From Escherichia phage ST0: a DNA stretch of 64,000 nt. The position numbers and the translations under genes were made by a program. The notes beneath the pieces were generated by a model that did no database searches, was not told the origin of the DNA, and was given only the letters and a program-made list of their open reading frames with translations. Positions 53,319 to 58,586 of the stretch are shown here, piece by piece. Position 1 is the stretch's first letter, and each line of letters begins with the position of its first letter. Location: sequence record MF044457, one strand, 5' to 3'.

Positions 53319-53898
53319 ATTAGTATTCGCATGTGCTCCGACTAAAACAGTTGATGATAAGCTGGAATATGCTTTTGGATTAGGTGATATGCTTCCATGG
53401 AAGCATATCAAACAAGATATGAGTAACTTTGTTGCTCGCACTAAAAACACTGTAATGGTTATGGGTGCTAAGACTTTTGCATCATTACCTCGTCTACTCC
53501 CAGACCGTACTCATGTGGTTGTCACTGATATGGCCAGAAAACTGCCTAGGACTAAAACTGATGAACTTGCACGGTTCTATATCACCCAATCTGAATTTAT
53601 TACCTTGGTAACAGGTGGTGAAATTAACCTGTTTAGCCATGCAACTGACGTACCGTTTAAACTTTCTACTGAACATGTTGATGTCTCGGTTATTGGTGGT
53701 CCTGCTTTATTAAAACAAGCACTGCCTTATGCCGATGAAATCGTGATGACTAAAATCATTAAGAAATGTCGTGTTAATTCCGATGTTCAACTTGATAAAG
53801 ATTTCGTCCAAGATATTATGCTTCAACGTTCTATGGTAGAATCTCATTACTACAGAATCGATGAACTCACCGAAATTACTGAGAGCGTTTATAAATGA
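53311..53898 (+). CDS. frd: Frd dihydrofolate reductase
   Basis: ORF track 53227..53898; ATG at 53311 (overlapping the upstream stop) gives [30 protein letters not shown]..., close to remembered T4 Frd; C-terminus ...ITESVYK. Confidence 0.9.
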   Translation: [195 protein letters not shown]

Positions 53899-54755
53899 AA
53901 CAATACCAATACCTGATTAAAGATATCTTAGAAAATGGCTACGAAACAGACGACCGTACAGGTACCGGCACTATTGCCCTGTTCGGAACTAAATTGCGAT
54001 GGGATCTGACTAAAGGATTCCCTGCGGTAACAACTAAGAAATTAGCATGGAAAGCTTGTATTGCCGAGTTACTGTGGTTCATGTCTGGTTCTACCAATGT
54101 TAATGATTTGCGTATTCGTACTCATGGTAGTCTTATTCAAGGTAAAACTATTTGGGACGACAACTATGAAAATCAGGCAAAAGACCTTGGGTATCATAGC
54201 GGCGAACTTGGTCCTATTTATGGTAAGCAATGGCGTGATTTTGGTGGTGTAGACCAATTAGTTGAAACAATCGACCGTATTAAAAAATTACCAACTGATC
54301 GTCGTCAAATTGTTTCTGCCTGGAATCCAGCTGAAATAAATCAAATGGCTCTTCCTCCTTGCCATATGTTCTATCAGTTCAATGTGCGTAATGGTCATCT
54401 TGATTTACAATGGTATCAACGCAGTGTAGATGTTTTCTTGGGTCTGCCGTTCAACATTGCCTCGTACGCTGCCTTGACGCATATTGTAGCGAAGATGTGT
54501 AACCTTATCCCAGGTGATTTAGTGTTCTCAGGCGGCAACACGCATATCTACAGCAATCATGTAGAACAATGCAAAGAAGTTCTTCGTCGTGAACCTAAAG
54601 AGTTATGTTCTCTTGAAATTAATTGGCCTAGTAATTTTGAGAATTGGCCTACAAAAATCCAAATGGACTGGGTTACTGGAACGATGACATATTCTGATTT
54701 CGTTCTTAAAAATTACGAATCACATCCAGCTATCAAAGCTAAAATGGCGGTATAA
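53895..54755 (+). CDS. td: Td thymidylate synthase, uninterrupted
   Basis: 286 aa in one frame; MKQYQYLIKDILENGYETDDRTGTGTIALFG and catalytic PPCHMFYQFNV match T4 Td. Confidence 0.95.
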   Translation: MKQYQYLIKDILENGYETDDRTGTGTIALFGTKLRWDLTKGFPAVTTKKLAWKACIAELLWFMSGSTNVNDLRIRTHGSLIQGKTIWDDNYENQAKDLGYHSGELGPIYGKQWRDFGGVDQLVETIDRIKKLPTDRRQIVSAWNPAEINQMALPPCHMFYQFNVRNGHLDLQWYQRSVDVFLGLPFNIASYAALTHIVAKMCNLIPGDLVFSGGNTHIYSNHVEQCKEVLRREPKELCSLEINWPSNFENWPTKIQMDWVTGTMTYSDFVLKNYESHPAIKAKMAV

Positions 54756-54756
54756 A

Positions 54757-57354: not shown

Positions 57355-57407
57355 GACTTTTTATTATAATTTACTCATGGATGAGTTAAACTAAGTGAGA
57401 AAATATA

Positions 57408-58586
57408 ATGAGTACAGTTTTTAACACACAACAAGTCGATGTTTTGAATGAACCGATGTTCTTTGGTTCTGGTCTTGGTATTGCGCGTTATGATATTCAA
57501 CGCCATAAAGTTTTTGAAGATTTGACCGAAAAGCAATTATCATTTTTTTGGCGCCCAGAAGAGGTAAACTTGATGTTGGACTCTGCGCAGTTCAATAAGC
57601 TTCCTCAGTTCCAACAGGACATCTTTACAAACAATCTTAAGTATCAATCATTATTAGATTCTATCCAAGGCAGGGCCCCGTCTGCGGTACTTATGGCACT
57701 GATTTCTGACCCTTCATTAGATACATGGGTTGCAACATGGACATTCAGTGAAACTATTCACTCTCGTTCGTATACTCATATTATGCGAAATCTTTATACT
57801 GATCCATCCAAAGTATTTGATGAGATTGTATTAGACGAAGCAATCATGAAACGAGCTGAATCAATAGGTAAATATTACGATGATGTTCTGGTTAAAACTC
57901 GTTATTGGGAAAACGCTAAAGCTGATATCGAATACCAAAAAGAAATTAATGCAGACGAAGACGTTATTGAAGATGCTATTGAGCATGAGACATATTGGAA
58001 GCGTGAGCTAATGAAATCTCTTTATCTCTGTTTGCATGTTATCAACGCCTTAGAAGCTATTCGTTTTTACGTATCATTTGCATGTACCTTTAACTTCCAT
58101 AAAAACATGGAAATTATGGAAGGTAATGCAAAGATTATGAAGTTCATTGCTCGTGACGAACAACTCCACCTCAAGGGTACTCAGTACATTATCCGTCAAC
58201 TTCAATCTGGTACTGATGGTGATGAGTGGGTTCAAATTGCTAAAGAATGTGAACAGGAAGCAGTTGACATTTTTATGGAAGTAAATAGACAAGAGAAGGA
58301 ATGGGCTGCACATCTCTTTAAAGACGGTACATGCCCAGGTATCAATACACAGAGTATGTGTGCTTTTGTTGATTACTTGACTGTGTCTCGTATGAAACAG
58401 TGTGGTTTGCCATGTCCAATTACTGATGCTCCTACAAAGCATCCGTATCCTTGGATTCGTGAATATCTGAACTCTGATTTAGTTCAAGCAGCTCCTCAGG
58501 AAGTTGAAATCAGTTCTTATCTTGTCGCACAAATTGATAATGATGTAGACCAAAATGTAATCAATTCATACAAAAAATATTTCTAA
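57408..58586 (+). CDS. nrdB: NrdB ribonucleotide reductase small subunit, uninterrupted
   Basis: 392 aa continuous ORF; di-iron ligand regions (TFSETIHSRSY, FIARDEQLHL). Confidence 0.95.
   Translation: MSTVFNTQQVDVLNEPMFFGSGLGIARYDIQRHKVFEDLTEKQLSFFWRPEEVNLMLDSAQFNKLPQFQQDIFTNNLKYQSLLDSIQGRAPSAVLMALISDPSLDTWVATWTFSETIHSRSYTHIMRNLYTDPSKVFDEIVLDEAIMKRAESIGKYYDDVLVKTRYWENAKADIEYQKEINADEDVIEDAIEHETYWKRELMKSLYLCLHVINALEAIRFYVSFACTFNFHKNMEIMEGNAKIMKFIARDEQLHLKGTQYIIRQLQSGTDGDEWVQIAKECEQEAVDIFMEVNRQEKEWAAHLFKDGTCPGINTQSMCAFVDYLTVSRMKQCGLPCPITDAPTKHPYPWIREYLNSDLVQAAPQEVEISSYLVAQIDNDVDQNVINSYKKYF

Follow-up and report, generated by a model that had tools for sequence, protein, structure and literature searches.

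The thymidylate synthase gene td and the gene nrdB of Escherichia phage ST0 (MF044457) are both intronless, and no homing endonuclease gene (HEG) flanks them. We analysed a stretch of 64 kilobases (kb), here called the window, of the ~168-kb genome of this phage, and our statements are limited to these 64 kb. The td–nrdA–nrdB–denA block of the window is very probably an uninvaded allele at a site of sporadic colonisation by selfish elements in T4-like phages. We favour this reading because the open reading frames (ORFs) are continuous, the T4 exons align to them without gaps, neither an intron nor a HEG was detected, and relatives are polymorphic at the same locus. The intron-free, HEG-free state is ordinary for the lineage and already documented; T4 is the exception.

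td and nrdB are uninterrupted genes

The td protein spans residues 1–266 of the 266-residue Pfam model Thymidylat_synt in one piece (E = 5.7e-97) and is 83% identical to its T4 counterpart. In the alignment, exons 1 and 2 of T4 td map gap-free to 53895–54443 and 54444–54755. The rebuilt T4 splice junction, TTCTTGGGT followed directly by CTACCGTTTAAT, puts the T4 td intron insertion site between positions 54443 and 54444. No insertion of ~1 kb is present between ...TTCTTGGGT and CTACCG... in the window, and the exons of both T4 and 348Ecol098PP, a relative that carries the intron, abut at this point. The cleavage motif of the intron-encoded endonuclease I-TevI, CAACG, is retained at −27 to −23 from the insertion site, with a spacing exactly as in T4.

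The nrdB exons of T4, which encode a protein 86% identical to that of the window, map to 57408–58081 and 58084–58549. An insertion site between 58083 and 58084 is the sole splice choice that restores the conserved FACTFNF in nrdB; the residues spanning it in the window protein are AIRFYVSFACTFNFHK. Between ...TTTGC(G/A)T and GTACCTTTAAC there is no insertion of 598–1091 nucleotides (nt); here too the exons abut. Both the td and the nrdB frames are continuous and therefore need no RNA splicing.

An initial annotation of this DNA, made from the sequence alone, had described td and nrdB as intronless and had put forward an alignment to the T4 exons as a check. That alignment is continuous across both insertion sites, in agreement with the single ORFs and with the intron search described below.

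No group I intron is detectable

In an Rfam covariance scan run with an E-value threshold, the group I intron family Intron_gpI (RF00028) has no match in 53000–60300 at E ≤ 1, and the whole window has no Rfam match of any kind at E ≤ 0.05. The positive control, 348Ecol098PP (L003), yielded both of its introns as Intron_gpI, with 36.2 and 33.9 bits (E = 1.5e-6 and 7e-6), at L003 2682–2912 and 7401–7641. We give no weight to a scan of the window at the Rfam gathering threshold that also returned no match, since at that threshold both control introns go undetected too. T4-type td and nrdB introns score 34–36 bits, below the RF00028 gathering score of 50, and are therefore overlooked by a default Rfam scan.

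No homing endonuclease gene is present in the window

The genes around td and nrdB are closely packed. From frd through td, the nrdA.2-like ORF, nrdA, nrdB and denA to rnlA, the successive spacers measure −4, 1, 87, 53, 26 and 56 nt. At these lengths they leave no space for a hidden gene. Within this block the barrel domain of nrdA matches the Pfam model Ribonuc_red_lgC end to end (1–523 of 523).

Endonuclease domains were sought in 99 ORFs, comprising 98 non-overlapping ORFs of at least 45 amino acids (aa) and an 82-aa ORF just upstream of frd. Pfam covered 97 of these, concatenated into 20 pseudo-proteins, at E ≤ 0.01. The other two are large minus-strand ORFs (45072–48947 and 39927–43199, at the positions of T4 genes 34 and 37), the DNA of which was covered by a six-frame tblastn search with 14 HEG queries. 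Among the 97 ORFs there is no Pfam match at this threshold to HNH, HNH_3, Endonuclease_7, NUMOD, LAGLIDADG, AP2 or Hint. No inteins or split host genes were seen either, as judged from nrdA, nrdB, td, gp41, UvsX, gp39 and gp52, each of which matches its family model in one stretch.

DenA is the only GIY-YIG match among the 97 ORFs (24.5 bits, with a cut-off of 22.6), as the initial annotation had stated. It is 78% identical to T4 DenA (EndoII) and occupies the same place between nrdB and rnlA. The traits of a GIY-YIG homing endonuclease, namely a C-terminal DNA-binding extension, a total length of 200–260 aa and a sporadic, non-syntenic distribution, are not those of DenA, which is an enzyme of host-DNA degradation and not a homing endonuclease.

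The tblastn queries were ten HEGs or relics of T4 (I-TevI, I-TevII, I-TevIII, segA, segF, segG, mobA, mobB, mobC and mobE) and four homing endonucleases from relatives in the genus Mosigvirus. Against all six frames of the window the best E value of these 14 is 0.15, reached in the group formed by mobA, mobB, mobC, mobE, I-TevIII and two Mosigvirus HNH HEGs; the best value for segA, segF, segG, I-TevI and I-TevII is 0.37. T4 DenA, run as a positive control, gave 8e-76. A PHROG scan of 20 Pfam-negative ORFs placed each in a T4-like family, none of them a homing endonuclease family. The functions named among these families are ModA, ModB, DenB, GoF-like, thymidylate-kinase-like and phosphoheptose-isomerase-like, and the rest are families without an assigned function.

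Two further statements of the initial annotation are upheld by these searches: by Pfam, PHROG and tblastn alike, no HEG flanks td or nrdB, where the gaps in the block are 1–87 nt, and no recognisable HNH or GIY-YIG homing endonuclease lies anywhere in the window.

All T4 homing endonuclease positions within the window are vacant

T4 has seven of its 15 HEGs in the corresponding stretch of its genome (mobA, segF, segA, segG, I-TevI, mobE and a relic of I-TevIII), and all seven positions are vacant in the window (Table 1). Across the td–nrdB region T4 has orthologous genes in the identical order. What the window lacks are the 1017-nt T4 td intron with I-TevI, the 598-nt nrdB intron with the I-TevIII relic, mobE and nrdB.1 between nrdA and nrdB, and segG beside gene 32. 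The contrast with T4 drawn in the initial annotation, of introns with endonucleases in td and nrdB plus free-standing genes nearby, is thus correct.

Table 1 Coordinates of the genes and vacant positions discussed, in window numbering
Feature	Position	Strand	Basis
td (thymidylate synthase), 286 aa, uninterrupted	53895..54755	+	ORF, Pfam, T4 exon alignment
nrdA.2-like small ORF (DUF5496, phrog_2458), 84 aa, not an endonuclease	54757..55011	+	Pfam, PHROG
87-nt spacer before nrdA, empty	55012..55098	.	ORF map, T4 and relatives
nrdA, 751 aa, unsplit	55099..57354	+	ORF, Pfam
53-nt nrdA–nrdB spacer, empty; place of mobE and nrdB.1 in T4	57355..57407	.	ORF map, T4 annotation
nrdB, 392 aa, uninterrupted; T4/RB3 intron insertion site 58083/58084	57408..58586	+	ORF, Pfam, exon alignment
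denA (endonuclease II), 136 aa, only GIY-YIG domain of the window	58613..59023	+	Pfam, tblastn
122-nt spacer between gene 59 and gene 32, empty; place of segG in T4	51212..51333	.	ORF map, Pfam, T4 annotation
45-nt spacer between gene 56 and soc, empty; place of segF in T4	15298..15342	.	ORF map, T4 annotation
Gene 39, single 605-aa ORF; in T4 gene 39, mobA relic, 60.1 and gene 60	25156..26973	+	ORF/Pfam, T4 annotation
srd, 248 aa; residues ~1–105 with HNH-like fold, Arg64 at the position of the catalytic His	18562..19308	+	PHROG, Foldseek

Close relatives are polymorphic at the locus

Over the segment 53000–60300 (7.3 kb), Escherichia phage PNJ-9 shares 97.9% identity with the window and dozens of other genomes share 96–98%, many of them 97–98%. 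These relatives are classified as Mosigvirus, several of them as the species Mosigvirus JS09. Identity to the same Mosigvirus set is 97–98% over positions 1–25000 and 95–97% over 25001–50000. High nucleotide identity to, and collinearity with, members of the genus place the source of the window in Mosigvirus, as an RB69/JS09-type member of the Tevenvirinae.

In the best-hit list for 53000–60300, 13 of the 24 distinct phages are collinear with the window and have a span within a few bases of it, whereas the other 11 carry insertions of 0.2–2.1 kb. For the narrower interval 53895–58586 the ranking was sampled evenly, and of the 11 sampled records with at least 92% identity seven (~60%) match collinearly as a single piece. 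Across the phage collection some 850–880 records hold the region, and the td intron matches ~260 records and the nrdB intron ~129, counts that redundancy in the collection makes approximate. The window is therefore clean by comparison with T4 but does not deserve the label 'unusually clean T-even backbone' given in the initial annotation, since 13 of 24 and seven of 11 relatives are collinear with it and RB69 is reported to have no HEGs at all.

The filled alleles include some in near neighbours of the window. In 348Ecol098PP, also a Mosigvirus and 96% identical over the region, td is interrupted by a 1016-nt intron encoding I-TevI and nrdB by one of 1091 nt encoding full-length I-TevIII; the window has neither. 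Its nrdB intron is 99% identical to copies in Tequatrovirus, and in the nrdB gene (L003 5926–8195) the 60 nt directly downstream of the intron are 100% T4-like, whereas the rest of the gene is not. The flanks in 348Ecol098PP are consistent with homing and co-conversion from a Tequatrovirus donor into a Mosigvirus background. In the td gene of the same phage (L003 1396–3272), identity to the window is lowered over ~150 nt of exon 1, which likewise fits co-conversion.

Insertions are also found in and beside nrdA. In ZQ3 an HNH HEG splits nrdA, which is whole in the window. The slot between nrdA.2 and nrdA holds an HNH homing endonuclease gene (211 aa; L005 2588–3223) in Shigella phage SSE1 and a 101-aa nrdA.1 (L006 2189–2494) in mar005P1 and T4, and is empty in the window. 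The nrdA.2–nrdA spacer is thus a variable slot within the genus. An insertion of 208–210 nt in mar005P1, G53 and NicPhage was considered as an ORF-less mini-intron and rejected, as it corresponds to the small nrdA.1 ORF. In ESh30 (ON528740.1) and N2 (ON645936.1) the td introns cover 24–32% of the full intron, in two pieces, and have apparently lost the I-TevI ORF.

Srd contains an HNH-like domain

The only HNH-like element of the window is the N-terminal domain of Srd, encoded at 18562–18890. Srd matches the Srd PHROG family at 1.6e-99 and is 68% identical to T4 Srd, with the same motif and the same neighbours (modA–srd–dda.1); it is annotated as a T4 early protein and anti-sigma decoy. The presence/absence polymorphism expected of an HNH HEG is not seen, srd being syntenic in T4. 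Srd is a conserved T4 backbone gene and not a homing endonuclease.

Residues ~1–105 nevertheless match PHROGs labelled endonuclease (4e-18), HNH endonuclease (1.8e-14) and endonuclease VII (4e-11). A profile scan of the hypothetical ORFs for homing endonuclease domains, also put forward in the initial annotation as a check, found none, and these PHROG matches of Srd are an exception in letter and not in substance. Pfam finds no HNH family on Srd even at E ≤ 10 and no consistent family on 74 homologues of the domain, and phmmer and profile searches with the domain against PDB sequences gave nothing significant. One homologue search with the N-terminal domain alone returned two matches. A phmmer search with residues 1–115 against 1.84 billion representatives returned 1,352 at E ≤ 0.001, many with two copies of the domain per protein. 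The domain has the motif C44-x-Y-x-G ... S-L-(E/D)-R64-x-(D/N)-N-x-x-G70-Y71-x-x-G-N75-V ... N84-x-x-(K/R), in which R64, G70, Y71, N75 and N84 are invariant or nearly so; Arg64 is invariant across the 74 homologues.

An AlphaFold2 model of the domain (pLDDT 91.6) consists of two strands followed by a helix. The top PDB matches of this model in Foldseek are the Gme HNH nicking endonuclease 4h9d (E = 0.019, probability 0.98) and PacI 3ldy (E = 0.022, probability 1.00), followed by Cas9 HNH domains and colicin DNases; there is no match at E ≤ 0.001. A Foldseek search with the full-length Srd model was set aside, as its matches are mostly coiled-coil noise. An HNH-like fold of the N-terminal domain is moderately supported by the model. 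In a ββα-metal motif the catalytic histidine ends the first β-strand, and in Srd this place appears to be taken by Arg64, as judged from the secondary structure of the model and not from a superposition.

The N-terminal ~105 residues of Srd may tentatively be read as an exapted, catalytically dead HNH (His-Me finger) domain in which the general-base histidine has been replaced by an invariant arginine, a possibility to which we give slightly less than even weight. If this is true, a core T4 gene of host takeover would descend from a nuclease of the homing endonuclease kind. The verdict on td and nrdB is unchanged by it.

Gene order and other differences from T4

The gene order of the window is T4-like. 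Gene names come from ORF, Pfam and PHROG results set beside the T4 annotation; genes 37, 35 and 34 are named by their position and the annotation of relatives, as their ORFs have no diagnostic family match or were unscanned. A first plus-strand block runs 42, uvsX, 40, 41, 61, 56, soc, mrh, modB, modA, srd, dda.1, dda, dexA, motB, cef, goF, 39, rIIA, rIIB, denB, ndd, 52, motA, asiA. It is followed on the minus strand by t, 38 and ORFs at the positions of T4 genes 37, 36, 35 and 34. The second plus-strand block comprises rnh, dsbA, 33, 59, 32, frd.2, frd.1, frd, td, nrdA.2, nrdA, nrdB, denA, rnlA, alc and pseT.

Next after gene 39 is a 366-aa ORF that has no Pfam match but belongs to phrog_8302 (E = 7.6e-222); the two together cover 25156–28116. 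In T4 the place of this ORF holds gene 60 and rIIA.1. Unlike T4, the window has no dam methyltransferase gene between genes 61 and 56 (14490–14760). At this place there is a hydrophobic 65-aa minus-strand ORF (14490–14687) that is possibly not a real gene.

Around gene 42 (4536–5252), a block of sugar-nucleotide-type genes (154–6701) stands in place of T4 beta-gt and segA. Its members are a SIS-domain protein, a 561-aa nucleotidyltransferase with weak, sub-threshold kinase-like matches, a phosphoheptose-isomerase-like ORF, a U32-peptidase-like ORF, a 299-aa ORF (phrog_3891) and a thymidylate-kinase-like ORF. RB69-type phages arabinosylate hydroxymethylcytosine, and we presume that this block may be the pathway for that modification.

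Discussion

That the td–nrdA–nrdB–denA block is an allele not yet invaded has to be weighed against several observations. Relative to T4, the td site is substituted at −22 to −19, +3, +9, +12 and +18, and the nrdB site differs at three of 20 upstream positions; cleavage of these sites by I-TevI or I-TevIII is a prediction. Some 20 small ORFs lack a functional assignment, though each falls in a T4-like PHROG family. The window is 64 of ~168 kb, and HEGs could be present elsewhere in the genome, for example at nrdD, gene 43 or the tRNA region.

Target-site substitutions, or a different DNA hypermodification, could also mean that the HEG-free state is actively maintained by immunity and is a selected trait. 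The differences from T4 at several positions of the td homing site would fit this, as would the non-T4 sugar-nucleotide gene block that replaces beta-gt beside gene 42, and RB69 fully excludes T4 in mixed infection (PMC2993671). However, relatives of 96% identity carry the same introns and HNH HEGs at these very sites, and such filled alleles in close relatives therefore contradict any lineage-wide immunity. The CAACG motif is moreover intact at the right distance from the td site, and about half of the best-hit list and four of the 11 records in the spread sample carry some insertion in the region, although not all of these are HEGs. We consider active maintenance very unlikely. A homing endonuclease that is degenerate or has escaped recognition among the hypothetical ORFs, with Srd as the candidate, we regard as scarcely credible. 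It draws on the matches of the Srd N-terminal domain to endonuclease-labelled PHROGs (E from 4e-18 to 4e-11) and on the HNH nucleases 4h9d and PacI being the top PDB matches of the Srd model. Yet Srd is orthologous to and syntenic with T4 srd, which is outside the 15 HEGs of T4; the position of the catalytic histidine is an arginine that is invariant in 74 homologues, no Pfam HNH model matches at E ≤ 10, and the remaining unassigned ORFs all belong to T4-like PHROG families of unknown function.

The vacant sites might instead be secondary, if the lineage was once invaded and then lost its introns and HEGs precisely, at the end of the HEG life cycle. HEGs do decay in relatives, as seen in the I-TevIII and mobA relics of T4 and in the ORF-less td introns of ESh30 and N2, and identity to T4 rises locally, to 0.92, around the nrdB insertion site. 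The rise coincides, however, with a stretch in which the protein is strongly conserved, and td has no such rise. In addition, tblastn detects no relic of any of the 14 HEGs, and the spacers of 1–87 nt bear no scars. One sequence cannot separate loss from never having been invaded, and we judge precise loss to be improbable.

An uninvaded allele remains our preferred reading. With its vacant sites, the genome could act as the recipient in a mixed infection with an intron- or HEG-bearing relative. Cleavage by the endonuclease close to the vacant site would be repaired on the donor template, a process that would bring in the intron or HEG along with adjoining exon sequence. The window confirms for one more Mosigvirus the published view, drawn from RB69 and from T-even phages in general, that introns and free-standing HEGs are sporadic passengers and that td and nrd form a hotspot at which vacant alleles are common. 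Its vacant sites could serve as natural recipients for homing experiments within Mosigvirus. In gene calling, one coding sequence is appropriate for each of td, nrdA and nrdB, and neither DenA nor Srd should be labelled a homing endonuclease.

Comparison with other T4-like phages

Wilson and Edgell 2009 (PMC2790892) describe the nrd region as a hotspot for the insertion of endonucleases, and their recipient in homing crosses was intronless, mobE-less T2. T2 is a Tequatrovirus, ~80% identical to the window in the region, and like the window has contiguous nrdA and nrdB genes without mobE or an nrdB intron. The survey of Petrov et al. 2010 (Table 5, PMC2993671) lists RB69, JS98, JS10, CC31, RB26, 44RR and 31 as being without HEGs, with 15 in T4, and T4 is described as an outlier (Edgell et al., PMC2988022). 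The closest counterparts of the window are RB69 and the JS09-type Mosigvirus genomes (for example PNJ-9, JS09 and phi25-307), which have the same order frd–td–nrdA.2–nrdA–nrdB–denA–rnlA at 96–98% nucleotide identity. Some members of this type have the small nrdA.1 ORF that is missing in the window. Otherwise their block is, like that of the window, free of introns and HEGs, and we see no material difference between them.

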